Origin: an uncultured Clostridia bacterium | Lineage (GTDB): Bacteria; Bacillota; Clostridia; Oscillospirales; QAMX01 | Assembly: GCA_944376195.1 (NCBI GenBank) | Contig: CALWBW010000007.1 | Coordinates: 3,230-67,229 of the forward strand | Direction of reading: 5' to 3' | DNA length: 64,000 nucleotides | Part shown: in pieces, positions 13,702 to 61,229 of the stretch | Position numbering within the stretch: the stretch's first letter is position 1 | Layout: every line of letters starts with the position of its first letter | Program-made: the position numbers and the translations under genes | The notes under the pieces: model-generated | Databases searched by the model: none | What the model was told of the DNA's origin: nothing | Seen by the model: the letters and a program-made list of their open reading frames with translations, nothing else

Positions 13702-16131
13702 ATGAATCAAACTATTACGCTGATGCCTCTGCTGCCGCTGCGCGGTTTGGTACTTTACCCCGAAATGATCCTGCACTTTGATCTGGGACGGGAGAGTTCT
13801 ATTCGCGCCGCTGAATATGCCATGAGCAATCATACGCCGGTATTCCTGGTAGCGCAGCGCGACATCAAGGACGAAAACCCGGATTTTGACGCGCTTTACC
13901 GAATCGGCACTGTCGCGCAGGTGCGTCAAATTCTTCGTCTTCCCGGAAATGATGTTCGAATCCTGGTGGAAGGAGAAAGCCGTGCGCGCCTGCTCGGCGT
14001 TATGGAAGACGATTCTTTAAAAAAAGCGGAAATTGAGGTGCTCGATACCATTCCCGCGCCCATTGGAAATGCGCGCACAGAGGCGCTCTATCGCAGAATT
14101 CAGGAGACGTTTGAGTCTTATGCGGCTCTTGCGCCGCGCATGACGCCGGAAGTCGTGATGAACGTACTGGGCGCCGAAGATTTAGGACGCCTGTCCGACT
14201 ATATTGCGCAGAGCATCCAGCTCCGCTATCAGGTGAAGCAGCGGATTTTGGAGCTCATCGATCCCATCCGCCGCGCCATGGAAATGATCTCCCTCTTGAA
14301 AGAAGAACTCGAGATTTTAACCATCGGACAACGAATTTCGCAAAAGGTTCGCGCCCAGATGGATAAAAATCAGCGCGACTATTTTCTGCGTGAGCAGCTT
14401 CGCGCCATAGAAGAAGAGCTGGGAGAGTTCGACGAAGACGATGACGATGATTCCTATCGTGAACGGATTCTGGCGCTCGGTTTGGAAAAAGAAAGTGAAG
14501 AGCATCTGCTGAAAGAAGCAAAGCGCCTCACCCGAATGCAGCCTTCCTCTCCGGAAAGCAACGTCATACATACGTATCTTGATACCGTGCTGGAACTCCC
14601 GTGGAATAAACGGGATCGTGAGCGCGCGGACCTGACAGCCGCCCGGCGGATTTTGGACCGCGATCATTACGGCATGGAAAAAGTCAAGGAACGTATTTTG
14701 GAATTCATGGCCGTACGGAAACTGAATCCCGGTTTGAAAGGCCAAATCATCTGCCTGATCGGCCCGCCAGGCGTTGGGAAAACTTCCGTCGGCGTCTCCA
14801 TCGCCGAAGCGCTTGGCCGGAAATACGCCCGCCTGTCGCTCGGCGGCGTGCGGGACGAAGCCGATATCCGCGGCCACCGGAAAACGTATATCGGCGCCAT
14901 GCCGGGACGCATTATGGCCGCCCTGGCGCGCGCGGGCAGCGCCAACGCGCTTTTACTCCTCGACGAAGTCGACAAACTGGGCGCCGATTATCGCGGCGAT
15001 CCCTCGGCGGCGCTTCTGGAGGTGCTGGACCCGGAGCAAAACCGCGCCTTCCGCGATCATTATATCGAACTCCCCTTTGATCTCTCCGATGTGCTCTTTA
15101 TTGTCACCGCGAATACGGCGGACACCATTCCGCGTCCCCTTCTTGACCGAATGGAAGTCATCGAAATGCCCGGTTATACAGACGAAGAAAAACTGCACAT
15201 TGCAAAAGACCATCTTTTCCCACGTCAGCTGACGCGTCACGGCCTCAAGAAAACGCAGCTTCGTATTCAAGACGCCGCGTTTTCCGCCATTGCCGCGCGC
15301 TATACGCGTGAATCCGGCGTCCGGCAGCTGGAACGGGAAATCGCGAAAATCTGCCGCCATACGGCAAAACTTGTCGCGGACAACCCCGAACGGAAACGAA
15401 CCCCCGCCACGCCTCCCAATCTCTCCGATCTTCTGGGCATTCCCATTTTCCAGCCTGTTTATGTCAGCCAGGCGGACGAATGCGGTGTGGTCAATGGCCT
15501 GGCCTGGACCTCGGTGGGCGGCGAAATGCTGGAGGTGGAAGTCAATGTCGTGGATGGCAGCGGAAAAACGGAGCTCACCGGAAATCTCGGAAACGTGATG
15601 AAAGAATCCGCGTATGCGGGAATCTCCTACATCCGCAGCCGGGCCAAAGCGTTGGGCATTGACCCGGATTTTTATAAAAAATACGACATGCACATTCATT
15701 TTCCGGAAAGCGCCATTCCGAAAGACGGCCCTTCCGCCGGGATTACCATCACCACCGCCCTGGTCTCTGCCTTAACCGGCCGTCCGGTACGGCACGAAGT
15801 GGCCATGACGGGCGAAGTTACTTTGCGTGGACGCGTCCTGCCCATCGGCGGCCTGCGGGAAAAGACCATGGCTGCCTATCGCGCGGGAATCCGTACCGTT
15901 ATCATTCCGGAGGCAAACCGCAAAGATCTGGAAGATCTCGTCCCGGCCGTACGGGAACACCTGCAATTTGTGTTGGCGTCCCATATGGACCGCGTCTTGG
16001 AAGAAGCGCTCGTTATCCCCTGCCCTGCCTCGGATGCGCCATTGGACCTTTCCGATACGCCGGCGCAGGCGGTAGATCCTCTGGCAGAGCCTGCCTCCCA
16101 TTCTACCTATGCCGATACCTTGAAACATTGA
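13702..16131 (+). CDS. lon: Lon protease (LonA)
   Basis: 809 aa. N-terminal LON domain. Walker [10 protein letters not shown]. Catalytic [10 protein letters not shown]. Confidence 0.95.
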
Positions 16132-38767: not shown

Positions 38768-40792
38768 ATGGAATACGGAAACTCGATTTTCCTCACCAAA
38801 CCCAATGATCCCATTGCGGCGGTATTTACGCCGGAGGCATACGGCGCCTGTCCGGATGGAATCGGCGACAACACCGCCGCTTTGCAAAAGGCGATTGATG
38901 AGGTCGTGGAAAAGCACTACCACGGTATTATTTACATTCCGGAAGGAATTTACCGCTTTGCGGACACCGTTCAGCTCTGGCGCGGCATTCGTCTGTTCGG
39001 CTATGGCGCAAAACGTCCGGTTTTTGTCCTGGCAGACCACACGCCCGGCTATGAAGGGCCCAACACGAAGTACATCCTGCATTTCCGCGACGCGCAGCCC
39101 CGTGAGAATTATCCTCTGCGCGACGCGCAGAATACCTCCTTCTATGGCGGCGTGCGTAATATCGACTTCAACCTCGGCCATGGAAACGCGGGGGCGGTTG
39201 CCTGCCGCTACCGAATTGCGCAGCTCTGCTCTCTGGAGGATATCGACTTTTACATCAACGATGCCTACGCCGCCGTGGAAATGGTCGGCAACGAAATTGA
39301 ACGCTGCCGCTTCTTCGGCGGTACTTACGGAATTGTCACCGGTGAAACGGTCCCCTACTGGCAGTTTTATCTCGGTGATTCCATTTTCGACGGGCAGAAA
39401 CGCGCCTGTATTTCCTCTTACCGCGCAGGTTTGACCATGGTGCGCGATACCCTGCGCAACGCGCCCTATGGCGTATACGTCCCGAACAAGGAGACAGACA
39501 ACCACTACATTGAGGAGTTTGAGCGGCTTTACATGGAAGATTGCCGTCTTGAGAATCTCTCCTCAGCCGGCGTCTGCATGAACATGACCCGGTATCCCCA
39601 AAACTGGCTGCACGCTAGAAATGTCGTCTGTCGGGACACGCCGATGTACTACGAACCGTTTGGTTATCGGTTTAACCACCATATCATGGTCACGCCTGTC
39701 ACATCCGACTATCCGTGCTATTCCGTGAATATGGACATGGGCCTTAAGATCAGCGTTAACAATCAGGACGTCAACCGCCGCTTCGACATTCAATTTGAGA
39801 TTACAGAAGCGCAGTGGAGCGATGCGCCCGCGCCCGACTACGTGGAAATGCCGGCGCTTTCGGACTGTGTCAACATCCGTGAGCTCGGTGCGGTCGGAGA
39901 CGGTATTGCCGATGACACGGCGGTCTTTGAAAAAGCCATTGCGGAATACGACAACATTTATGTCCCGATGGGCGCTTATCGTCTCACCCGCGGCCTGACA
40001 CTGCGTGAAAAAACAGCGATTGTCGGCCTGCACTGTTTCTGCACCCGCTTCCTGATGGACGACGAATGCCCCGGGTTTACGGACGCTCTGCATCCGCAGT
40101 CCATGTTTATCGCGCCCAAGGGCGGACATAACCACGTCTGCGGCATCAGTTTTGACGGCGGCCGCAATCCCGGCCTGAACTCCGTCGAGTGGATGGCGGC
40201 GCCGGACTCGATTCTTGAGGACGTTCTTTTCCTGCACGGCGCCCGGATGCCGATGGGACCGCGCAAAAACGTCGTCGGCGGCCAGTCTGTGCGCGGCAAA
40301 AGACAGCGCAAGGGCCGCGACCGCAACCATACGATCTGGATCCATGACGGCGGAGCCGGGGTGTTTAAGAATATCTGGTCGCCTGATGTCTGGGCAAAGG
40401 ACGGGATCTATATCAACGATACCGAAGCGCCCGGCAAGATGTATCTCGTTTCCGTCGAGCACCATCTCGATATTGAAGTTGTTCTGGAGCGCGTAGCCAA
40501 CTGGAAGATTATTGCCCTTCAGACCGAAGAGGATTTGGGAAGCGAATATGCGGGTTCCGTCCGCTGCCGCGACTGCTTCGATGTGGAGTTCGTCAGCCTG
40601 TTCCAGTATCGTGTCCAGGCCATCGATATTCAATACCCGTATGCCAGCGTTGCAGAGAACTGTAAAAATTTACAGGTCAACGGCGTGCATGTCTTCTCCA
40701 TCGGTCCCACACCTTTCACAAATGCCTTCCTCATCGACGGCAAGACCGTCATTCAGGATCAGGAGATTGGCAGTCTGCACATTTCCTGCTAA
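38768..40792 (+). CDS. Pectate-lyase-superfamily (GH55/GH28-related) protein with two beta-helix cap motifs
   Basis: 674 aa. Two copies of the cap motif: GACPDGIGDNTAALQKAIDE (N-terminus) and LGAVGDGIADDTAVFEKAIAEY (near 39880-39950). No N-terminal signal peptide. Confidence 0.7.
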   Translation: MEYGNSIFLTKPNDPIAAVFTPEAYGACPDGIGDNTAALQKAIDEVVEKHYHGIIYIPEGIYRFADTVQLWRGIRLFGYGAKRPVFVLADHTPGYEGPNTKYILHFRDAQPRENYPLRDAQNTSFYGGVRNIDFNLGHGNAGAVACRYRIAQLCSLEDIDFYINDAYAAVEMVGNEIERCRFFGGTYGIVTGETVPYWQFYLGDSIFDGQKRACISSYRAGLTMVRDTLRNAPYGVYVPNKETDNHYIEEFERLYMEDCRLENLSSAGVCMNMTRYPQNWLHARNVVCRDTPMYYEPFGYRFNHHIMVTPVTSDYPCYSVNMDMGLKISVNNQDVNRRFDIQFEITEAQWSDAPAPDYVEMPALSDCVNIRELGAVGDGIADDTAVFEKAIAEYDNIYVPMGAYRLTRGLTLREKTAIVGLHCFCTRFLMDDECPGFTDALHPQSMFIAPKGGHNHVCGISFDGGRNPGLNSVEWMAAPDSILEDVLFLHGARMPMGPRKNVVGGQSVRGKRQRKGRDRNHTIWIHDGGAGVFKNIWSPDVWAKDGIYINDTEAPGKMYLVSVEHHLDIEVVLERVANWKIIALQTEEDLGSEYAGSVRCRDCFDVEFVSLFQYRVQAIDIQYPYASVAENCKNLQVNGVHVFSIGPTPFTNAFLIDGKTVIQDQEIGSLHISC

Positions 40793-40989: not shown

Positions 40990-41748
40990 TTACACACGGG
41001 AAATCCGCATTAAGAGCGTATGCGGCAGAAGCTTTGCCAACACACGGTACACTTTGAACAACAGCAGCGGCGTATATTGTCCGCGTCCCTTTTCGCACCG
41101 GCGCAAGGAGACCTCCGCCACTTTTGCAGGCTGACAACGCGGCAGGCGCGCAAACGCGCGGCTGTTGCCCAAAATATTGCCGATTTTCAAAAACGGCGTA
41201 TCCATCGGGCAGGGATTCACTGCAAGTACGTGGATGCCGCGCGGCGAAAGCTCCGCACGCAATCCCTTTGCCAGGCTGGAGACATAGGCCTTGGTGGAAG
41301 CATACACCGTCATGCGCGGAGTCGGCACAAAAGACGCAATGGAGCTTATCAGGATGATCCCGCTCCCAGACGACATATAAGGGATTGTCTGCGCCGTCAA
41401 GAGCGTCAGCGCACGGACATTTACATCGCACATGGCCATATCGTCGGCCAGGTTAATCCGTTCAAAATCTCCGAGAAACCCCAATCCCGCGCAACCAACG
41501 AGCAAGCGCACATCCGGGCGCTCCGCTTCCAGCAGCAGCCGGTATTCCGAAAAACTCGCCGGATCTGCCAAATCCAGCGATAGGCAACGTACACGGCACC
41601 CCTGTATCTCCGTTTCCATCGCGCGCAGTCTGTCGCCGCGTCGGGCAATCAGCCACAATTCCTCCAAACCACCCGCAAACGTTTTCGCCCGGCGTGCAAA
41701 CTCTGCACCAAGGCCCGACGATGCGCCTGTTATTACGCCAATTTTCAT
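40990..41748 (-). CDS. SDR family oxidoreductase
   Basis: TGASSGLG cofactor motif, catalytic YASTKAYV (YxxxK), NVRAL. Confidence 0.88.
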   Translation of the reverse strand: MKIGVITGASSGLGAEFARRAKTFAGGLEELWLIARRGDRLRAMETEIQGCRVRCLSLDLADPASFSEYRLLLEAERPDVRLLVGCAGLGFLGDFERINLADDMAMCDVNVRALTLLTAQTIPYMSSGSGIILISSIASFVPTPRMTVYASTKAYVSSLAKGLRAELSPRGIHVLAVNPCPMDTPFLKIGNILGNSRAFARLPRCQPAKVAEVSLRRCEKGRGQYTPLLLFKVYRVLAKLLPHTLLMRISRV

Positions 41749-41770
41749 GTGTACCGCGCTCCTTCGCTCT

Positions 41771-42328
41771 TTATTCTACAAAAAACTCCACATACTCCAC
41801 TTTTCCGCTTTGAATTCCACAGGCAAACACACAGCCTTCGCTAGAATATTCCACCAGCACAGGCGTACGCCCGTCGTACAAAATTACCCCGTAATCTCCG
41901 CCGGATTCATATGTTCCGTAAAGCAGGCGGTAATGTTCGCCATCCGGACTGGTATACATCGTTTCCTCTCCGGATGACAGAAACAGCGGAACCAAATCTT
42001 CAATTTTCATGCCAATTGTCACACCGCGCGGTGCCTCCAGCGTATCGTCATAGAGGCAGACGGCATACACATATCCGCTCGCCGCCTCCGCGCAGAAGGA
42101 GTTTTTTCCGTAGCGGAATTCATTCGCCTGCACACCCTGAAAACTTGCAATCCGTTCTTCATCCGGCTGCCCGAATGTTTCAAAAATTTCCGACTCCGTC
42201 AGTGCAAAGACATGCGCAAGTTCTGAAAAGGAAAACGCCTCGGCGTCTGCCTCTTTCGGAAGATACGTACAGGCAGAAAATAAGAGCAGACAAAACACCG
42301 CGACGGCGGGAAAAAGAATTTTTCGCAT
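41771..42328 (-). CDS. Lipoprotein, function unknown
   Basis: Lipobox LLFSAC. 185 aa. 22-nt gap to the downstream SDR gene. Confidence 0.65.
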   Translation of the reverse strand: MRKILFPAVAVFCLLLFSACTYLPKEADAEAFSFSELAHVFALTESEIFETFGQPDEERIASFQGVQANEFRYGKNSFCAEAASGYVYAVCLYDDTLEAPRGVTIGMKIEDLVPLFLSSGEETMYTSPDGEHYRLLYGTYESGGDYGVILYDGRTPVLVEYSSEGCVFACGIQSGKVEYVEFFVE

Positions 42329-42448
42329 AGAATCCTCCCATCATTGTAATCGATACTCGTTACATTTCCAGCCAAACAAGCTGTTTTATTTTATCACAGA
42401 CAGTGGCTGCTTTCCATGTCGAAAATGCAAATTTTTATAGATATAGAG

Positions 42449-42484
42449 AAAAGCAAGCCGTTTTTCGCTTTAAAAACGGCTTGC
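42449..42484 (-). terminator. Intrinsic terminator after the P-type ATPase homologue
   Basis: 13-bp stem GCAAGCCGTTTTT/AAAAACGGCTTGC, followed by TTTT on the minus strand. Confidence 0.75.
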
Positions 42485-42491
42485 CTGTCTT

Positions 42492-45400
42492 TTATTCATG
42501 CTGTTTGGTTTCCTCTTCCGGCACAGCTTCTACTACTGTCTCCGTCCCCGGTGCAACTTCCACCTCCGGCACAGTTTCCACTACCGGCTCCGTTTCTGGT
42601 ACTACTTCTACTGTTGTCTCCACTTCCGGTATAGTTTCCACCTCCGGTGCGGTTTCCACTACCGGTGTAGGTGCCTCTTCCGGAGCAATTTCCACCGCCG
42701 TCTCCACTTCCGGCACAATCGCCTCTTTCGATGCAGCTTCCGTCCCCGGTGCAGCTTCCACTTCCGGTGTAAGTTCCTCTTCCGGAGCAGTTTCCACCTG
42801 AATGTGGGGCAGGCGCGCAGTTTCTTCCAACGTCTCCGCAGGAGCATCCGTCTGCTCCGTCTCATCCGGTTCCACAATTTCCGGTTCTCCGTCATCTTCC
42901 GGTCTTTCCTCTGCATTGCCGTCCGGCTGAGCTGCCGCCTGTGCCGAACGAACCTTCGCCGCTTTTTCCGCTGCGCGGGCAGCTTTCTTCGCGGCGCGCT
43001 TTTCGCGGCGTGAAGGTTCCACATCCTCCTGTGTCGGATCATCACCTTCAAATTTCTCAAATAACCGCTCCGTTAAGCTTCCTCCGGAAGACACACTTGC
43101 TTCCACGCTCCGCTCGCGGATATTGCGCGCCAGAATGGGCCGTAAGATTCCCTTGTAAAGTTCGCTCCAGATCAGAGAGAGTACTGCCGAACCAATTGCC
43201 AGCAGCCACTCCACGATGCCGACGGAAGCCGTATGGAACACGCCGTGCAAGGCAGGGACATACACCGCAGCGACCAGAAGAATTGCCACGCCAATCGTCA
43301 CCGCCACCAGCGCGTGATTGGTGAAGAACCCCAGACGGATCAGGCTGGTGCGCTCAGATCGGCAGGAGTAGGCAAGGGCCAAAAGAGAAAATGTCATGGT
43401 TAAAAACGCTGCTGTTTTGGCAAATCCATCGATCTCCGTCTCTCCCAATCCGGCCGAAACCGCATGGTTACTGGCCAGAAAATACGAAGAAACGATCAGC
43501 ACCGTCGGTAAAAACGCCTGGATAAAAGAGGAAACGATCGTAAGCCGTCCGTATGCCGGCGCAGTGGCCTTATGCGGAGGACGGCGCATGATATCCCGCT
43601 CTCCCGGTTCGCCGGCAATGACAAACGCGGGAATCAGCGCCAGGAATGCGTTCAGCCACGCAAGATGCAGGATGGAAAACTGTACGGGCGGCGTAGAAAC
43701 CAACATGGCAAACACCGTCAGCATCTCCGCAATCAGGCACGCAAAGGCGAATCCACAATAGGAGCGCAGCGCGATAAATCCGCGCCGGCTCTCCTCCACA
43801 GCACGCACAATGCCCGCATATCCCACGTCCTCAAGCACCATATCCGCACTGTCGCGCGTAAGCTCCGGCGCATTTGCACCGATGGATACGCCAATATCCG
43901 CCGCCATCAGAGCCGGCGCATCGGACGCGCGCGTTCCCGTCACAGCAACGGTACCGCCGGAATGTTTCAGTGCCGTCACAATTGCGCGTTTTTCAAGCGG
44001 CGATATTCTGGCGCAGACGCGCGTTCTGCGCATTTTTTCGCATAATTCTTCCAGCGGCATCGACTCAATCTGCCCGCCTTCAAAAATCTCTCCGGACATT
44101 CCCATGGAAAGCGCGAGATCCGAAGCCGTCGCCGGATCGTCGCCCGTCACAATCACCGTGCGAATGCCGGCGGCCAGACACAGGTTAAAGGCAGAGACGG
44201 ATTCGCCCGTCGCACGATTGTCGATTCCGCAGAGACCGGCAAACACCAGCTCCCGTTCCATTTCTTCCGCGTCGAAATGGGTGGGCATTTCCGGAAACTC
44301 CCGGTAAGCAACAGCAAGCACACGCAGTCCCTGCTCTGCCATACGATGCGCAACCTCCAGAATCTGTTTTCTGGTATGGTCGGACATCACATAAGCCGTC
44401 CCGCTCAAATTCACCGATGCGCACCGTTCCACAACCATATCCGGCGCGCCCTTCATATAGGCAATGGCCTGGCGGCCATGTTTGTGCACCGTCGTCATGC
44501 GGCGGCGTTCCGCCTCAAAGGGGAATTCCGCCACGCGCGGGAACATGGCCAACACGTCCGTTCGTACCAGGCCCGCCTTCGCAGCCAGCGTAACCAGCGC
44601 GGCCTCCGTCGGATCGCCGACATATCCCCACTCGCCCCGGCGTTCCTCGATATCGGAATCGCCGCACAGCGCGCCGCCTATCAGGGTGAGCGCCAGGCTG
44701 CGATTCCGGCTGACGTCAATTTCCCGTCCATCGGTATCCAAGAAGCGCCCGTCCGGCGCATAACCACGGCCGCGCACATCAATCAGATGGCCTCCCGTCC
44801 AGACCGCGGTCACCGTCATCTCGTCGGACGTTATGACGCCTGTTTTCTGTGCCACAATCGTATCGAGGGAGGAAAGCCTGTCCATGGCGTCCAAAGATTT
44901 CACCACGGTCCCCTGCAAAGCAAGGCGCCGGATCGCCGCCGCGGAAAGCGCCGCCTCCGTAATGCAGAAACTTGACGGAATCGCCGTAACGGCAAGCGTA
45001 ACCGCAAGCAGGATGGTGTTAGTCAGATTTTCAATGCTCATCGCCTGCACCAGCAGGCTGCTCAAAAGAATCACCGAGCTGCAAATGATACCAATTGTCA
45101 CAGCGCGTTTATTCTGCCGCGCAATGGTGCGGTTTAACGCACTGCGGCGTTCGTGCTCATAGGGAGAACGTACCGCAAACGGCGCGGCAATGTTGGCGCC
45201 GGTCGCGACGACAACCGCGCGTCCGCTTCCGGAGCGTACCACCGTTCCCGTATAACACATATTGAGGTGCGCGGAGAGATCCGTTCCCTCTTCCACCGTC
45301 ACGGACGCCGACTTTGCAGCGCCCATAAAGCCGCCGGGGAGAATGCTCTCATCCATCACAAGGTCTATCGTCTCCACAAGACGCATGTCGGCGCCGATGA

Positions 45401-45830
45401 TATCGCCTGCACGAAGCTGCACCAGATCCCCGGGCACCAGCCGCGTCGCCTCTACAATTTCCGGTATGCCATCGCGCACCACGGTCGTCATGGGCGCCGT
45501 CACCGTTTCAATAGAACTCAAAATTCTGCGAATTTTCGCCAGGGAATAACTCTTTAAACCCGCCGTAAACAACGCGCTGCCAAAAAGCACCGCGGCGGAC
45601 AGATAATCGCTTGTCAAAAGGCACAGCACAGCGGCCGCCGTCAAAATGGCCGCGGACGTCATCATTCCCCCGACGCTTCCGGAAACCACCTGTCTTTCCG
45701 GCTTTTTTGCGGGTTCATTCGCGCCGTACCGAGTACGCCGGGCGGCAGCTTCCGAGGCGGAAATGCCGGCGGCGGCGTTTGTATCCAGCTCCCGTAACGT
45801 TTCTTCTACGCTTTTTTCATACCAGGCCAT
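42492..45830 (-). CDS. P-type (P2-like) ATPase homologue with degenerate catalytic motifs and a long C-terminal repeat tail
   Basis: 1112 aa. Cation_ATPase_N-like start (SVEETLRELDT...GISASEAAARR..YG.NE). KGAPD and VTGDD retained. QKTGV replaces DKTGT (Q codon cag at 44847-44849). GGAGGA RBS. Confidence 0.85.
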   Translation of the reverse strand: MAWYEKSVEETLRELDTNAAAGISASEAAARRTRYGANEPAKKPERQVVSGSVGGMMTSAAILTAAAVLCLLTSDYLSAAVLFGSALFTAGLKSYSLAKIRRILSSIETVTAPMTTVVRDGIPEIVEATRLVPGDLVQLRAGDIIGADMRLVETIDLVMDESILPGGFMGAAKSASVTVEEGTDLSAHLNMCYTGTVVRSGSGRAVVVATGANIAAPFAVRSPYEHERRSALNRTIARQNKRAVTIGIICSSVILLSSLLVQAMSIENLTNTILLAVTLAVTAIPSSFCITEAALSAAAIRRLALQGTVVKSLDAMDRLSSLDTIVAQKTGVITSDEMTVTAVWTGGHLIDVRGRGYAPDGRFLDTDGREIDVSRNRSLALTLIGGALCGDSDIEERRGEWGYVGDPTEAALVTLAAKAGLVRTDVLAMFPRVAEFPFEAERRRMTTVHKHGRQAIAYMKGAPDMVVERCASVNLSGTAYVMSDHTRKQILEVAHRMAEQGLRVLAVAYREFPEMPTHFDAEEMERELVFAGLCGIDNRATGESVSAFNLCLAAGIRTVIVTGDDPATASDLALSMGMSGEIFEGGQIESMPLEELCEKMRRTRVCARISPLEKRAIVTALKHSGGTVAVTGTRASDAPALMAADIGVSIGANAPELTRDSADMVLEDVGYAGIVRAVEESRRGFIALRSYCGFAFACLIAEMLTVFAMLVSTPPVQFSILHLAWLNAFLALIPAFVIAGEPGERDIMRRPPHKATAPAYGRLTIVSSFIQAFLPTVLIVSSYFLASNHAVSAGLGETEIDGFAKTAAFLTMTFSLLALAYSCRSERTSLIRLGFFTNHALVAVTIGVAILLVAAVYVPALHGVFHTASVGIVEWLLAIGSAVLSLIWSELYKGILRPILARNIRERSVEASVSSGGSLTERLFEKFEGDDPTQEDVEPSRREKRAAKKAARAAEKAAKVRSAQAAAQPDGNAEERPEDDGEPEIVEPDETEQTDAPAETLEETARLPHIQVETAPEEELTPEVEAAPGTEAASKEAIVPEVETAVEIAPEEAPTPVVETAPEVETIPEVETTVEVVPETEPVVETVPEVEVAPGTETVVEAVPEEETKQHE
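42495..42800 (-). repeat. Imperfect in-frame tandem repeats encoding PEVET-like units
   Basis: Recurrent CTTCCGGNNCAGTTTCCAC-type units. The protein reads ...TAPEVETIPEVETTVEVVPETEPVVETVPEVEVAPGTETVVEAVPEEE. Confidence 0.6.
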
Positions 45831-46067
45831 GAAATCGATCCTCCATTCGACACAACACGCGCAGATCCCATATCGACATACCGCAAAACGCGGCTTTTTT
45901 TATTTTTGACAGAGCACGGTCTCATCGGGACAGGAGAAACCGCGCCGGATATACCACTTTTTATGATACCATACTCTTTTTTCGTTTTCAAACTATTTTC
46001 CCGAATTCATTTGTGATATAATCAATTTCAGAAATTCAAAATGCCATGAGATAAGGAGAACAGCCAT

Positions 46068-47246
46068 ATGACGGATTCCATTCTGCATCGCCCGCTCTCT
46101 GAGCTGACGGACATTTCCTTTTCCTGCGATTGCGGACATACCCACAGCATTCAAATCGGTACGCTTGCCGTAGGACCCGGCGCATCTTCGCGCGTCGCGG
46201 AAACGGCGAAGGCCTGCGCACCACGGCGCATCCTGCTCGTTGCGGACGTCCATACGTTTGACGTACTGGGCAGCCGTGTGTTGGAGCAACTGAAAGGCGC
46301 CGGGCTTGATGCCGACGCCTATGTATTCCCGGATAGTCACCTGCATCCGGACGCCTCCGCGGTCGGACGGCTGTTTTTGGAGGCCTCCGATGAAAAGGCG
46401 GGCTACAGCCTGCTCATTGCGGTTGGATCCGGCGTATTAAACGACATCACGCGGCTGGTCTCCGGACGGCTCGGCCTGCCGTATTACATTGTATGCACGG
46501 CACCGTCTATGGACGGCTATGCCGGAAGTTCCTCGCCGATTGTCTGCCGCGGCACAAAATTAAGCTTTTATTCTCATTACGCCGACGCCATTTTTGCCGA
46601 TACGGAAATTTTGAGCCGTGCGCCGCGTGAGATGATTGCGGCGGGATTCGGCGACGTACTGGGAAAATATACGGCTTTAGCAGACTGGGAGCTTGGGGAA
46701 CGCGAACGCGGCGAGTACCGCTGCGCGCTGATCTCCGACTTTATGCGCGGCGCCCTGGAAACCTGCGCAGCGTCTGCGGAGGGCGTCGCAGCGCGTGATC
46801 CCGCGGCTGTCGGGCACCTGACGGAGGCGCTCATCCTCTCCGGTATGGCGATGGGCCTGGCCGGCGTGACGCGGCCGGCCTCGGGATGTGAACACCACAT
46901 CGCGCACTATTGCGACATCGACGCCGTGGCGAATCACCGGGATTATCCGCTCCACGGCGCGTCGGTCGGCGTGGCGGAGCTGGCCATGCTGCGTTTTTAT
47001 GAATTTGCGCGGCGCGACGGCCTGACGGATTTGGAAACGCCGTCCGCCGACGAAGTACGCGCGCTGCTTTTGAAAGTCGGCGCACCGGTACGGCCTGACG
47101 AAATCGGCATTTCAAAGGAGCTCTTCTCCCGCGCCATCCGGGAAGCCATGAACCTGCGTCCTCAGTACTCCATGCTCCGGCATGTCGCCGCCGCGGGAAA
47201 ACTGGATACATACGCCGACGCTGTAGTAAAGGAACTGTGCGATTGA
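46068..47246 (+). CDS. sn-glycerol-1-phosphate dehydrogenase family protein (AraM/EgsA-like, iron-ADH superfamily)
   Basis: AVGSGVLNDITR, AAGFGDVLGKYTALADWEL, SGCEHHIAHY, LHGASVGV. Confidence 0.7.
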   Translation: MTDSILHRPLSELTDISFSCDCGHTHSIQIGTLAVGPGASSRVAETAKACAPRRILLVADVHTFDVLGSRVLEQLKGAGLDADAYVFPDSHLHPDASAVGRLFLEASDEKAGYSLLIAVGSGVLNDITRLVSGRLGLPYYIVCTAPSMDGYAGSSSPIVCRGTKLSFYSHYADAIFADTEILSRAPREMIAAGFGDVLGKYTALADWELGERERGEYRCALISDFMRGALETCAASAEGVAARDPAAVGHLTEALILSGMAMGLAGVTRPASGCEHHIAHYCDIDAVANHRDYPLHGASVGVAELAMLRFYEFARRDGLTDLETPSADEVRALLLKVGAPVRPDEIGISKELFSRAIREAMNLRPQYSMLRHVAAAGKLDTYADAVVKELCD

Positions 47247-48385
47247 AAACGTATGAATTTTGCGCGCCGTGCTTGATCGGCGTAGAGAGCATTGCGGCGG
47301 GGGAGTTCCGCCGCCTGGGATTTGAAAACGTGCGCTGCGAAGACGGCCGCGTATATTTTACGGGCGGGGACGATACGCTTGCCCGCGCCAATATCTGTTC
47401 GCGTTACTGCGAACGCATTTTAATCCGTCTGGCCTCCTTCCCGGCAGATAATTTCGATCTGCTTTTCGATGGGGTGCGCCAGATTGCCTGGGAAGACTAT
47501 CTTGCGCCGGGCATGGCGTTTCCGGTAAAAGGGTATAGCCTCCGTTCAAAACTGACCAGCATTCCCGCCTGTCAGCGCATCATCAAAAAAGCGGCGGCGG
47601 AACGGCTGATGTCCAAACGTCACACCGCCTGGCTCGAGGAATCAGGTCCGGCAGCGCGGATTCAATTTTCCCTGATCCGCGACCGCGCCGATATTTTTCT
47701 CGACACTACCGGCACGCCGCTTTTCAAACGCGGCTGGCGTACGGAAGGTGGCGTCGCGCCCATTCGCGAGACGCTGGCAGCCGCCATGGTGGATCTCTCC
47801 CGGTTCCGCGGGGACATGCACTTTTTAGATCCCCTGTGCGGCAGCGGTACAATTGCGATTGAGGCCGCGCTGAAGGCCCGCCGGCGCGCACCCGGTATTG
47901 AACGCCGGTTCGACGCCCAATGCTTCCCGTTTGTGAACCCCGCCGTGTGGAGCGCCGCACGGGAAGAGGCAAGAGCCGGGGAGATGCCCTCCCCCGCCGT
48001 GATTGAAGCCCGGGATATTGATCCCGCCTGCATTCGACGGGCCGAAGCAAATGCCCGCCGCGCCGGCGTGGCGGATATGATCCGTTTCTCCGTGGCGGAC
48101 GTGACAAAGTCGGACCTTTCCGCGTTTCGCGGCGTTTTGGTGACCAACCCGCCCTATGGCGAACGGCTGAGTGACCGGGAGAGCGTACATGCGCTTGCCC
48201 GCGGCCTGGGCCGTGCGCTGGGCTCTTTAGATGGCAAGAGCGTCTATGTCATCACGCCGGACCCGGAGTTTGAATCGTTTTTCGGGCATCGCGCAAACCG
48301 CAAACGCTGGCTTTATAACGGCATGATGAAATGCAGCCTCTATATGTATTTTCCCGCAAAAGCATCCGCACATGTACATGCATAA
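47237..48385 (+). CDS. THUMP-domain class I SAM-dependent RNA methyltransferase (RlmL/YpsC-like)
   Basis: THUMP N-terminus. DPLCGSGTI (motif I) and NPPYGERL (motif IV). GTG 47237 or TTG 47243 start, overlapping the upstream stop. Confidence 0.85.
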   Translation: MRLKTYEFCAPCLIGVESIAAGEFRRLGFENVRCEDGRVYFTGGDDTLARANICSRYCERILIRLASFPADNFDLLFDGVRQIAWEDYLAPGMAFPVKGYSLRSKLTSIPACQRIIKKAAAERLMSKRHTAWLEESGPAARIQFSLIRDRADIFLDTTGTPLFKRGWRTEGGVAPIRETLAAAMVDLSRFRGDMHFLDPLCGSGTIAIEAALKARRRAPGIERRFDAQCFPFVNPAVWSAAREEARAGEMPSPAVIEARDIDPACIRRAEANARRAGVADMIRFSVADVTKSDLSAFRGVLVTNPPYGERLSDRESVHALARGLGRALGSLDGKSVYVITPDPEFESFFGHRANRKRWLYNGMMKCSLYMYFPAKASAHVHA

Positions 48386-57282: not shown

Positions 57283-57359
57283 TGGCGCGCTTGAAGGGAC
57301 TCGAACCCCTGACCTACTGGTTCGTAGCCAGTCACTCTATCCAGCTGAGCTACAAGCGC
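57283..57359 (-). tRNA. tRNA-Arg (anticodon ACG)
   Basis: 77 nt. Acceptor GCGCTTG/CAAGCGC, G73, encoded CCA. Anticodon arm ACTGG-CTACGAA-CCAGT. T-loop TTCGAGT. Confidence 0.9.
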
Positions 57360-58370: not shown

Positions 58371-61229
58371 ATGAAGCAGTGCTGTTCCCTCTTGATTTCC
58401 CTTCTTTTGCTTGCTTGTTTTCTGTTTCCGAACGGCGGACAGGCATTCGCGGCAGAGTTGCCGGAAAGTGCGGACTTTCGCGCCGTCTGGGTCTCCACGG
58501 TCTTAAACCTGGATTATCCCGCCGCGCCCACTTCCGACGCGGGAACGCTGGCGCAGCTGGCGGACGTCATATTAGACGGCGCGGCGGAAATGGGATTTCG
58601 TGCGGTCATCTTACAGGTGCGTCCCGCGGCGGACGCCCTTTATCCTTCCGAAATTTTCCCCTGGTCGTATTATCTGACCGGCGAATCCGGGCAGGCGCCT
58701 TCCGACGGTTTCGATCCGCTTGCTTACTGGGTGGAAGCCGCGCACGCGCGCGGGCTCGAGCTTCATGCCTGGATTAATCCCTACCGGATCACCAAAAACA
58801 CCTCAGAACATCTCATTGAAAGCCTGGACCAGCTGCCGGAAGGTTCCCCTGCGCGCGAACACCCCGAATGGGTCGTCCAGTATGGCGGGGATTTTTATTT
58901 TGACCCCGCCCTTCCCGAGGTACGGGCACTTGTTGCAGACGGGGTTCGGGAAATTCTGGAACATTACGAAGTAGACGGCATCCATCTCGACGATTACTTC
59001 TATCCCGGTCAGGATTTTGACGATTCGGCCTCTTATGCCGCTTACGGCGAAGGCCGGGATCTTGCCGACTGGCGGCGGGAAAATGTCAATCAACTCATTC
59101 GCGATCTCCACGCCGTCGTCAGCGGATATCCGGACGCCGAATTTGGCGTCAGCCCCGCAGGTATCTGGGCAAACAGTACGACGGACAGCCGCGGCAGCGC
59201 GACTTCCGGCGGAGAAGCTTACACCCAACACTACGCCGACACCCGTCTCTGGGTAGAAGAAGCCATGCTGGACTACATCTGCCCGCAGATCTACTGGCAT
59301 ATCGGTCATCCTCTGGCAGATTACGCGGAATTGGTTTCCTGGTGGTCCGCGCTTTGCCGGGACTCCCCCGTCAAGCTTTATATCGGCATGGCCGCTTACC
59401 GCGTAGACGGGGAGAGGGAAGACAAAGCCTGGCAGGGATATGAGGAAATCCTGCGTCAGCTGGAACTCAACCGGGAAACGGGCGGCGTCGACGGCGTCGT
59501 GCTCTTCCGTTACGGCAGCCTTGCGGCAAATACGCCGCTTTCCGAAGCGCTTGCCGCCTGGTTTGAGGATCATCCGGTATATGCGCTTGCGGTGCGTCTG
59601 CCGGAACGCAATCTGACCACCGATTTATCTTCCTACTATCTCGGCGGTACGGCGGCGCCGGGCAGCGAACTGACCTGCAACGGCGAACCGGTGACCGCCA
59701 TCTCCTCCGACGGCTATTTCGGGATGCTTGTTGCGCTGGACTACGGTCCCAATATCTTTACTTTCACGCAAAACGGCGTAACCGTAAGCAGGACCATCAT
59801 CCGCACCGACACGCTGCCGGATTACAGCGCGGCGGGATGTCTGACGGCCGCCTTTCCGACCTCCGATTCCTATTTTTTACCCGGATACGAAATCGAACTG
59901 CGCTGCACCGCGCCTGTCGGCGCGTCCGTCAAAGCAGAATTCGGCGGACGGGTCTATGTGCTCCATCCGGATCACACGCCTTCGTCGCAATACACTTCCG
60001 CCGACACTACCGTATTCCGGGCAGTCGTCACCCTGCCGGGAAAGAGCAGCGGTTTGGACGACCTGGGGGCCCCTGTTTATACCATGCGCTGGCGGGGCGA
60101 ACGCCAGCGCATGGCCGCAGCGGGCCATCTTTACCTGGTGCGCGACGGTGAACCGCTCACCGTCCGTATGAACGGCACGGTATACGCCTATGAGACCGCT
60201 TCCACTTCCGGCGGCTGCGTCAACGAATACGCAGAGGGGATGTCGGACCAGGTGGACTATTTCAGCGGCGCATTTTTTAAGCTTTCCTCCGGTTACTGGG
60301 TAAGCGCGCAGGATGTAACAGTCCTGCCGGGCACGCTTTCCGATCCCACGCTCAAAAGCGTACGGCATACGCTTTATCAGGGATACGAGCAGATTGCCTT
60401 TCATAAAAAAGGCGGCGCGGCGGGATATGCCACCTATGACGCCAATACACGGACGGTGACGGTCTGCATTGCGCCGGTGGAAAACGCGCCGGCGCTTTCC
60501 CTGCGCGCAGGCTCGCTGTTCGCCACCTGCGAAGCTTCTTTGGAGGAAAACCGCGCCGTCTATCGCCTGACCCTGAAAGAAGACGTCTCGCTTGGCGGCT
60601 TTTATGTGGAAACAACCGCAAACGGTCTGGCGTTTATTGCCCGGGAAACACGCGCCGTGGCGGACGGAGCCTATCCGCTTCGCGCGCACACCATTGTGAT
60701 TGACGCCGGGCACGGCGGGCCGGCTTCCGGCACGCTGGGCCTTCTGGGGTCTGATTGGCCGGAAAAGGCCGTGAATCTGGAACTTGCCTCGGCGCTTGCG
60801 GATAAACTGCGCGGTCTCGGCGCCACAGTCATCGAAACCCGTACGGACGACACCGATGTCTCGCTGGAAGCGCGCGTGGCCTGCTCGCGCGCCGCACGCC
60901 CGGACCTTTTCCTCTCCATCCACTGCAATAATCTCTCCTCAGACACCGACATGACGTCGGTCGAGGGGTTTTCGCTCTACTACCGCGAAGACCTGTCTCG
61001 GGAAGCGGCGGAAACGCTCTTTGACACCTGCCTTTCGGAGACGTCCGGCGTACAACGCGGCCTGCATGAGCAGAATCTGTATGTCTGCCGGGGGAACTGG
61101 TGCCCGGCCATTCTCTTTGAGACCGCGTTCATGTCTAGTCCTCAGGATTTTGAAAACTTAACTGATCCCGCATGGCGCGACGCCATAACGGACGCGCTGG
61201 CGAAAGGGATTCTTGCCTGGTTCGCGTAA
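58371..61229 (+). CDS. Secreted fusion protein: glycoside-hydrolase-like 10 (DUF187/YngK-type) domain plus C-terminal N-acetylmuramoyl-L-alanine amidase (Amidase_3)
   Basis: Signal peptide ...GGQAFA/AE. FRAVWVSTV..., ILQVRPAADALYPSEIFPWSYYLTG, GLELHAWINPYR. C-terminus IVIDAGHGG...EKAVNLELA...DLFLSIHCNN. Confidence 0.85.
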   Translation: MKQCCSLLISLLLLACFLFPNGGQAFAAELPESADFRAVWVSTVLNLDYPAAPTSDAGTLAQLADVILDGAAEMGFRAVILQVRPAADALYPSEIFPWSYYLTGESGQAPSDGFDPLAYWVEAAHARGLELHAWINPYRITKNTSEHLIESLDQLPEGSPAREHPEWVVQYGGDFYFDPALPEVRALVADGVREILEHYEVDGIHLDDYFYPGQDFDDSASYAAYGEGRDLADWRRENVNQLIRDLHAVVSGYPDAEFGVSPAGIWANSTTDSRGSATSGGEAYTQHYADTRLWVEEAMLDYICPQIYWHIGHPLADYAELVSWWSALCRDSPVKLYIGMAAYRVDGEREDKAWQGYEEILRQLELNRETGGVDGVVLFRYGSLAANTPLSEALAAWFEDHPVYALAVRLPERNLTTDLSSYYLGGTAAPGSELTCNGEPVTAISSDGYFGMLVALDYGPNIFTFTQNGVTVSRTIIRTDTLPDYSAAGCLTAAFPTSDSYFLPGYEIELRCTAPVGASVKAEFGGRVYVLHPDHTPSSQYTSADTTVFRAVVTLPGKSSGLDDLGAPVYTMRWRGERQRMAAAGHLYLVRDGEPLTVRMNGTVYAYETASTSGGCVNEYAEGMSDQVDYFSGAFFKLSSGYWVSAQDVTVLPGTLSDPTLKSVRHTLYQGYEQIAFHKKGGAAGYATYDANTRTVTVCIAPVENAPALSLRAGSLFATCEASLEENRAVYRLTLKEDVSLGGFYVETTANGLAFIARETRAVADGAYPLRAHTIVIDAGHGGPASGTLGLLGSDWPEKAVNLELASALADKLRGLGATVIETRTDDTDVSLEARVACSRAARPDLFLSIHCNNLSSDTDMTSVEGFSLYYREDLSREAAETLFDTCLSETSGVQRGLHEQNLYVCRGNWCPAILFETAFMSSPQDFENLTDPAWRDAITDALAKGILAWFA

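Follow-up and report, generated by a model that had tools for sequence, protein, structure and literature searches.

The stretch of DNA analysed here, 64 kb of contig CALWBW010000007.1 from an uncultured Clostridia bacterium (referred to as the window), carries a gene for a full-length P-type ATPase homologue in which the residues of the reaction cycle and of the ion-binding site are replaced. We regard the product as a pseudo-ATPase, a maintained and presumably expressed protein that descends from a P2A Ca2+-ATPase of the PMR1/LMCA1 type and is no longer catalytic, and estimate the probability of this reading, which is drawn from sequence comparison and structure prediction, at about 60%. The broader claim that the protein is kept by selection for something other than pumping is very likely correct. 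The open reading frame of 1112 codons is present as an earlier note on this DNA had described it:

42492..45830, minus strand: coding sequence for the dead P-type ATPase homologue of P2A type, 1112 aa, with its stop codon at 42492-42494

In both sequence and fold the protein is a member of the P-type ATPase superfamily, with the P2A pumps as its nearest kin. The Pfam domains Cation_ATPase_N, E1-E2_ATPase, Cation_ATPase and Cation_ATPase_C are found above their gathering thresholds and the generic P-type model TIGR01494 (HAD-IC) scores 156 bits (cutoff 62.3), while the HAD/Hydrolase model for the P domain yields 21 bits only and stays under its cutoff. Both Ca2+-ATPase equivalog models fall short of their thresholds, TIGR01522 (PMR1-type) with 389 bits (cutoff 798.3) and TIGR01116 (SERCA-type) with 292 bits (cutoff 703.4); for comparison, the canonical sister P0016 reaches 739 and 674 bits. 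The closest solved relative is the Listeria Ca2+-ATPase LMCA1 (6zhf), with E=4e-92 in a residue-by-residue HMMER alignment. Of the P2-type, Ca2+- or Mg2+-like pump suggested by the earlier note, the P2A type of PMR1/LMCA1/SPCA kind is what remains; the protein is not of the Mg type. An AlphaFold2 model built with a 99-sequence alignment (mean predicted local confidence, pLDDT, of 82 with the core above 90; overall confidence, pTM, of 0.79) represents a complete P2-ATPase with A, P and N domains and the ten transmembrane helices expected, M4 being unwound at P285. In Foldseek comparisons the model resembles SPCA1 in E1-ATP-like states (TM-scores of 0.83-0.86) more than E2P states (about 0.6), and the structure of the palytoxin-bound Na,K-ATPase is among the fold matches.

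P-type ATPases are defined by an aspartyl-phosphate intermediate. The position of the phosphorylated aspartate is taken by glutamine in the window protein, and its codon is indeed CAG at 44849-44847, flanked by gca (Ala) and aaa (Lys). Since an exchange of Asp for Gln requires two base changes at this codon, a single sequencing error is no explanation. Profile alignments and the pairwise alignment to LMCA1 confirm the register of all motifs concerned. The pairs, with LMCA1 given first, are DEGMLTGES/DESILPGGF, AIPEAL/AIPSSF, ICTDKTGTLT/IVAQKTGVIT, DPPR/DNRA and GDGVND/GTRASD, and TGD is retained. The replaced sites are located as follows:

45327..45338, minus strand: A-domain loop, residues 165-168, PGGF for TGES (alignment to LMCA1 and the clade)
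44967..44978, minus strand: M4, residues 285-288, PSSF for PEGL, the ion-gating Glu gone (alignment)
44835..44849, minus strand: former phosphorylation motif, residues 328-332, QKTGV for DKTGT (Q328 = CAG, 44847-44849)
44208..44219, minus strand: residues 538-541, NRAT for DPPR/DPAR (alignment)
43920..43937, minus strand: hinge, residues 632-637, GTRASD for GDGVND (first Asp and Asn lost, last Asp, D637, kept)
43635..43742, minus strand: former cation-site positions of M5-M6, residues 697-702 ACLIAE for SCNIGE and residues 727-732 NAFLAL for NLVTDS (alignment)

The replacement of the hinge motif had been recognised correctly in the earlier note, although its coordinates were slightly off; on the whole the positions given there agree with ours to within a few codons. 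Beyond the motifs listed there, the ion ligands of M5, M6 and M8 and the DDNF and ITGTDV motifs are replaced as well. M8 reads LLAL and has lost the Ca2+-ligand Glu, and the Glu left in M5 is not conserved within the clade, so that the ligand set of the Ca2+ site (M4 Glu, M5 Asn/Glu, M6 Asn/Thr/Asp, M8 Glu) is not found. Checked against LMCA1 and 84 canonical relatives, the losses comprise the nucleophile D328, T332, the Mg2+ ligand D633, N636, the TGES Glu, DPPR, ITGTDV, DDNF and all ion ligands. A TGES tetrapeptide within NRATGESV, to which the earlier note had drawn attention, is present in the P domain of the window protein, but apart from this it occurs only in a 99% identical relative, the others reading TSDS, TPES or TPDS; as it is not conserved among the relatives we consider it a coincidence.

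On the basis of what structural work on P-type ATPases has established, we take the counterparts of the lost and retained residues in SERCA to be F487, K492, K515, R560, D351, T353, D627, K684, D703, N706, D707, E183, E309, N768, E771, T799, D800 and E908. With these losses, and judged from the established Post-Albers enzymology of P-type ATPases, the protein presumably cannot form a phosphoenzyme, cannot hydrolyse ATP by the mechanism of the family and cannot bind, occlude or transport Ca2+.

The non-canonical residues are shared by all orthologues. A search of 5.8 billion protein clusters yielded relatives of graded identity (99, ~80, ~63, ~45 and then ~36%), and the 15 nearest clusters, from 99% down to 40% identity, without exception show the same losses in the alignment. 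The position of the phosphorylated Asp is Gln in P0001-P0010 and Pro in P0011-P0015, which defines two subclades. P-G-G of the A-domain loop is invariant, followed by Phe in every member except P0001 (Val). Throughout the clade PEGL lacks its Glu, DPPR is represented by NR(A/V) or NPA, the hinge GDGVND has become G(T/S)xA(S/A)D except in P0011 (ANQAAD), and hydrophobic or small residues stand in for the Asn of M5, the Thr-Asp of M6 and the Glu of M8. One step further out, P0016-P0021 are fully canonical, and so are 78 more homologues. A profile built from the dead clade retrieved precisely these 15 clusters from the 5.8 billion (1520-1958 bits, then 881 bits), and an exhaustive HMMER search of 1.84 billion representatives gave three at 1690-1951 bits before the next match at 690 bits; neither collection holds a further member. 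The lineage is monophyletic with 100% bootstrap support and sits on a long stem. Among the genomes collected in GTDB it is found in four species representatives, all of them metagenome-assembled genomes (MAGs) of uncultured Clostridia of the Oscillospirales type: 'Ca. Allobutyricicoccus pentlandensis', an Oscillospiraceae MAG, a 'Clostridiaceae' MAG and a Hadza-labelled Eubacteriales MAG.

Ratios of non-synonymous to synonymous substitutions (dN/dS, omega; Nei-Gojobori on codon alignments of seven loci) show that the gene is under purifying selection, and together with the absence of the catalytic residues this qualifies the protein as a pseudoenzyme in the operational sense. For the 900-residue core, omega amounts to 0.04-0.10 in the least saturated pairs (dS 0.95-1.5) of both subclades. 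No domain is exempt (A 0.04-0.12, N 0.04-0.11, P 0.04-0.08, membrane 0.04-0.14), and the most constrained segment is the surroundings of the former phosphorylation site with an omega of about 0-0.01. The substituted residues are fixed while their codons vary, as for P165 (CCC/CCG), G167 (GGC/GGG/GGA), F168 (TTT/TTC) and the former Asp position (Q328 CAG/CAA, P328 CCG/CCC). The core values are on a par with those of the neighbouring housekeeping genes, which for the same genome pair are 0.10 (Fe-ADH_2) and 0.07 (THUMP methyltransferase):

46068-47246, plus strand: Fe-ADH_2 (glycerol-1-phosphate-dehydrogenase-like), syntenic marker, divergent from the pump gene
47237-48385, plus strand: THUMP/RlmL-like methyltransferase, syntenic marker (the pair is context, a functional tie being putative only)

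The pump gene is divergent from these two genes in the window and in every dead-clade contig examined, and from this shared locus we conclude that it is inherited vertically. Taken together, the recurrence of the losses in 15 clusters, the low omega, the fixed substitutions and the intact predicted fold bear out the view of the earlier note that this is a maintained pseudo-enzyme and not a decaying pseudogene. What selection keeps is the entire fold, and above all the nucleotide-binding domain, the new invariant A-domain loop and the tail module.

The positions at which the canonical pumps are invariant have not been lost evenly. Compared with the 84 canonical relatives, 84% of them are kept in the N domain, 62% in the A domain, 38% in the P domain, 37% in M5-M10, 25% in M3-M4 and 21% in the N-terminus and M1-M2.

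44241..44795, minus strand: N (nucleotide-binding) domain, residues ~346-530, 84% of canonical-invariant positions kept
44139..44147, minus strand: TGD motif, residues 562-564 (G563 and D564 invariant, T562 replaced by Ser in three members)

The N-domain pocket still has GDPTE405-409, F438, R442, KGAP460-463 and R503, with an invariant Arg in place of the canonical Lys at 443, and the P domain keeps the phosphate-contacting residues K329-T330-G331, G563-D564 and D637. This selective retention of the N-domain pocket and of the P-domain phosphate contacts suggests that the protein most likely still binds ATP or ADP without turnover. New residues are invariant in the membrane domain of the clade (H722, A731, F736, W888), and an aspartate, D336, is found in 80% of members eight residues after the former phospho-Asp, where canonical pumps have Asn.

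The second conspicuous feature is the C-terminus, in which M10 is followed by the conserved segment LFEKFEGDDPTQE, a basic helix and a disordered polyanionic region:

43023..43061, minus strand: conserved tail motif FEKFEGDDPTQED, residues 924-936 (F924, F927 and D931-P-T-Q934 invariant)
42936..43016, minus strand: predicted basic amphipathic helix, residues 939-965 (mean pLDDT about 82-89)
42495..42935, minus strand: disordered polyanionic tail rich in E/A/V/P/T with 18-nt (PEVETx) tandem repeats, copy number strain-variable

The net charge of the tail is -38 in the window protein and ranges from -25 to -136 across the clade, in which the tails are 174-475 aa long as compared to 75-124 aa in the canonical sisters. 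PEVETx units are encoded by the 18-nt tandem repeats at 42510-42797. P0001, which is 98-99% identical, differs by a 16-residue repeat indel, so tail length is strain-variable; past the motif, the tail with its repeat indels is the fastest-evolving part of the protein (omega about 0.2). A 132-aa Ser/Thr/Gly-rich open reading frame at 42403-42801 (plus strand) is an antisense shadow of these repeats and not a gene. The canonical sisters P0016-P0021 have the DPT(Q/L) motif as well, together with an acidic tail that is shorter, and the tail module is therefore older than the loss of catalysis.

We propose that nucleotide would be held by the pocket residues F438, R443, K460, R503 and E409 and would not be hydrolysed. 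Headpiece closure that depends on nucleotide could then make the protein a membrane-located sensor, switch or scaffold, the output of which would presumably run via the remodelled A-domain loop (PGGF), the membrane domain and the cytoplasmic C-terminal module, that is, the DPTQ motif, the basic helix and the long disordered polyanionic tail. Nucleotide sensing in particular is a tentative assignment, to which we give somewhat less than even odds.

The nearest canonical relatives P0016-P0021 (36-37% identity to the window protein) are clostridial P2A pumps that resemble it in the G-x-DPT(Q/L)-acidic motif and the acidic C-terminal extension. They differ in that all their catalytic and ion-site motifs are intact, in their shorter tails, in the lower GC content of the host DNA and in their locus immediately downstream of proB-proA (L005, L006); a canonical sister at the pump's own locus is thereby ruled out. 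A second degenerate group of seven clusters (P0174, P0175, P0177 and P0321-P0324; hereafter group 2), the first three of which are the next-best representatives after the dead clade, is likewise linked to these genes:

L012:8001-11204, L014:8001-11024 and L015:2507-5530: group-2 loci (P0323, P0175), 36-40 nt after proB-proA

Both the canonical and the group-2 genes lie 15-40 nt after proB and proA. Like the dead clade, group 2 has lost the Glu of TGES and of PEGL, the Asn of GDGVND and every ligand of M5, M6 and M8; it also shares the exchange of Lys for Arg at 443 and bears tails (P0175 has GADPTQEDE). Unlike the dead clade, it retains the Asp, in DKTGT or the variants DKSGT, DMAGT and DRTGT, reads TGE or TAE for TGD, and is only ~30% identical to the window protein. 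The two groups cluster in 100 of 100 bootstraps of a neighbour-joining tree; because both are long branches we grade this grouping as no more than probable. We assume that the lineage has its origin in a subfamily of clostridial Ca2+-pumps that bear tails and are linked to proBA. In such a scenario a pump of this kind would have lost the ion site and the dephosphorylation loop; one descendant would have stayed at proBA and is now seen as group 2, and the other would have relocated or duplicated to the Fe-ADH_2/THUMP locus and lost the Asp. The probable course thus leads through an intermediate without ion site and TGES Glu to a relocated or duplicated form that lacks the Asp as well.

The gene is furnished with predicted signals for expression. 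A ribosome-binding site and a terminator, both claimed before, are in place (GGAGG at 45844-45840 and a hairpin with a 15-bp stem at 42486-42451), and a promoter-like site precedes them:

45840..45844, minus strand: ribosome-binding site GGAGG, 9 nt before the ATG, conserved in relatives (alignment A4)
45963..45991, minus strand: promoter-like site, TTGAAA, 17-nt spacer and TG-extended TATCAT, inside a ~75-nt conserved block
~45945..46020 (approximate), no strand assigned: divergent-promoter block common to the pump and Fe-ADH_2 genes, carrying TGATATAAT on the plus strand
42451..42486, minus strand: intrinsic terminator-like hairpin with 15-bp stem, directly 3' of the stop codon

The ~75-nt block is almost invariant across six genomes in alignment A4 of the intergenic region (window 45831-46067), and it is nearly unchanged even in a relative of 62% identity for which the synonymous sites of the coding region are saturated (dS >1). 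It spans the -35 and extended -10 elements of the pump gene and, back to back with them, TGATATAAT for the divergent Fe-ADH_2 gene. Because the whole spacer is conserved, an operator for some regulator is suggested. A small hairpin (GCCGCG-TTTT-GCGG, preceded by an A-run) lies at ~45875-45893 in the 5' untranslated region of the pump gene; it is partly kept in relatives and is without Rfam match. A riboswitch or leader RNA upstream (e.g. an M-box) was considered and rejected, as no Rfam match was found at E<=1 across 41500-46500.

Several points weigh against our interpretation. The lineage is taxonomically narrow with its four GTDB species representatives, and it evolves somewhat faster than its neighbours, since the window protein and the subclade with Pro at position 328 are 45% identical as compared to 64-65% for the neighbouring genes. 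In the nucleotide site, the invariant Lys that is equivalent to SERCA K492 is Arg in the clade, the equivalent of K684 is Arg in part of the Pro subclade, and without D328 and D633 the usual coordination of Mg-ATP in the P domain would be impossible. A conserved partner gene was not found next to the pump gene, the downstream genes differing between the subclades. Finally, the tree that joins the dead clade to group 2 was obtained by neighbour joining only, and their union could reflect long-branch attraction.

Other explanations have to be considered. The highest-ranked of them, which we nevertheless hold to be rather unlikely, is that only the C-terminal module is functional and the dead body is a stable ten-helix anchor that displays the DPTQ motif, the basic helix and the tail on the cytoplasmic side of the membrane, nucleotide binding being irrelevant; ionic-strength or osmotic sensing, buffering of divalent cations or recruitment of a partner are possible roles of such a tail. 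The invariance and the age of the tail motif, the lengthening of the tails and their charge are in line with this idea, and the position of relatives behind the proline-synthesis genes proB/proA hints at a context of osmotic stress. For a mere anchor, however, the A, N and P domains would not have to be held at an omega of 0.04-0.11; the conservation of the N-domain signature and the invariant PGGF loop are likewise at odds with it, and it is the tail past the motif that evolves fastest. Somewhat less likely still is a regulatory or structural partner that would join a tail-bearing pump of the same cell, canonical or of group 2, in a hetero-oligomer and modulate it, a proposal modelled on degenerate subunits of other ATPase families. 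Related pumps with the DPTQ motif exist at the separate proBA locus, so paralogues may coexist, and one metagenome (3300031555) contains both a dead-clade and a group-2 contig, but tetranucleotide comparison of the two (r=0.79) is uninformative on whether they come from one organism. There is no paralogue within the 64-kb window, and P2A pumps are generally regarded as monomers, which we count against such a partner.

A passive channel, a facilitator or a protein that handles lipids in the manner of a P4 flippase, in each case without ATP-driven cycling, appears improbable. The membrane domain is constrained and has acquired its own invariant residues, M4 (PSSF/PAGL) is uncharged like the PISL motif of P4 flippases, and pumps can be converted to channels, as in the palytoxin-bound Na,K-ATPase. 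Yet the polar and charged ligands of the path have all been replaced by Ala, Leu, Phe, Gly or Ser, a new conserved polar cluster is not evident in the clade, and a CDC50-like partner was not found. Overall the evidence points to a nucleotide-binding sensor or scaffold, and it speaks against a cation channel since all carboxylate and amide ligands of M4, M5, M6 and M8 have given way to residues that are small or hydrophobic. An active ATP-driven pump with non-canonical chemistry, using another nucleophile or direct hydrolysis, is essentially excluded. In its favour one can cite the persistence of KTG, TGD and the hinge's last Asp as well as the presence of D336, but D336 is not invariant, the nucleophile has been replaced by Gln in one subclade and by Pro in the other, and the ion site as a whole is gone along with both Mg2+ ligands (D328, D633) and the TGES Glu; we know of no P-type or HAD enzyme that works without the Asp nucleophile. 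The same verdict applies to a decaying pseudogene, a strain-specific lesion or a sequencing artefact with a frame open by chance, a reading that is effectively refuted. It could draw on the missing catalytic residues and on a few split database copies such as the one made up of P0007 (777 aa) plus P0125 (272 aa). On contig L011 (GCA_965643355.1), however, where the dead-pump gene is split, the THUMP methyltransferase and an aldo-keto reductase are fragmented too, and because of these split neighbours an artefact of an indel-prone assembly is most likely, so the split copies cannot be used to infer decay. The identical substitutions down to 40% identity, the constraint on every domain, the persistence of the replacement residues through synonymous codon changes, the conserved promoter and the two base changes required from Asp to Gln all contradict decay. 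The alternatives thus rank in the order tail anchor, paralogue partner, conduit or lipid handler, and last the pseudogene or the non-canonical pump.

The remainder of the locus adds context to the pseudo-ATPase gene. The closest match of the Fe-ADH_2 protein is NAD(P)-dependent glycerol-1-phosphate dehydrogenase, with 182 bits and thus below the 413-bit cutoff; this enzyme belongs to the archaeal-lipid-type family that is known from some Bacillota as well. Downstream of the pump gene, at 41771-42328 (minus strand), a 185-aa lipoprotein-like protein (…LLLFSAC… signal) without Pfam or NCBIfam family is encoded. Among the relatives, none but the closest (L001, L011) have it at this place, and it shows no homology to the gene that follows the pump in the Pro subclade; we dismissed it as a conserved partner. 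A second, canonical pump is not encoded in the 64-kb window, the other large reading frames being those of a Lon protease and a GHL10/amidase protein. Further features are:

13702-16131, plus strand: Lon protease
38768-40792, plus strand: pectate-lyase-like (RHGA) protein
58371-61229, plus strand: GHL10 + N-acetylmuramoyl-L-alanine amidase fusion, 952 aa
3232-3305: tRNA-Gln(CTG)
57283-57359: tRNA-Arg(ACG)

Compared with characterised systems, the window protein agrees with LMCA1 (6zhf), human SPCA1/PMR1-type pumps (7yai, 8iwr) and the family TIGR01522 in the order of its domains, the ten transmembrane helices and the nucleotide pocket, and it shares TGD and the KTG of DKTGT with LMCA1 and SPCA1. 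Unlike these, it is devoid of the phospho-Asp, TGES, the PEGL Glu, DPPR, GDGVND and the Ca2+ ligands of M5, M6 and M8, and it has an acidic C-terminal tail of ~220 aa. Since the catalytic features are missing and the thresholds of the Ca2+-ATPase equivalogs are not reached, it ought not to be classified among the Ca2+-ATPases. The database names 'Ca2+-transporting ATPase' and 'HAD-IC family P-type ATPase', given to members of both degenerate groups (P0141, P0323), are likely functional misannotations.

Neither a bacterial P-type ATPase lineage without the phospho-Asp, nor one that keeps the entire machine minus nucleophile, phosphatase loop and ion site, is described in the literature searched, in agreement with the earlier note, which knew of no such characterised family; absence from that literature is no proof. 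The nearest precedent exists in eukaryotes, among the alveolates. In chimeras of a P4-ATPase with a guanylate cyclase (P4GC) from ciliates, gregarines and cryptosporidia and in haemosporidian P4GC-beta the flippase module is degenerate. The DKTGT Asp and the A-domain Glu (LDGET) are affected in some lineages, and the module, for which a supporting or regulatory part has been suggested, is nevertheless retained (PMC13466520; PMC7858053). P4GC proteins are of the P4 lipid-flippase type and fused to a class III cyclase as output, whereas the window protein is bacterial, of P2A type and stands alone without a recognisable output domain. It is not a P4GC, as it has P2-type pump domains only, no cyclase domain and a tail of low complexity. 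We might therefore be dealing with the first stand-alone prokaryotic family of P-type 'pseudo-pumps', that is, nucleotide-binding, non-hydrolysing sensors or switches of which evolutionary intermediates are still extant; this is the boldest form of our proposal, and we hold it with considerable reserve. Such a pseudo-pump would possibly report the energy state or the ionic-strength or osmotic state of the cell via the DPTQ motif and the polyanionic tail.

The finding is relevant to specialists in P-type ATPases and in pseudoenzymes, within the limits of its narrow spread in uncultured organisms. Current annotations overstate the cation-export capacity of these gut Clostridia in inventories of metabolism and transporters. 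A full-length dead pump that is kept by selection means that the P-type fold is useful for something besides transport, and it offers a natural 'locked' P-type ATPase for nucleotide-driven domain movements that are uncoupled from chemistry. The dead clade, group 2 and the canonical sisters form a graded series from pump to pseudoenzyme, and if the scenario outlined above is true, the stepwise intermediates would allow each step from enzyme to pseudoenzyme to be reconstructed and tested.

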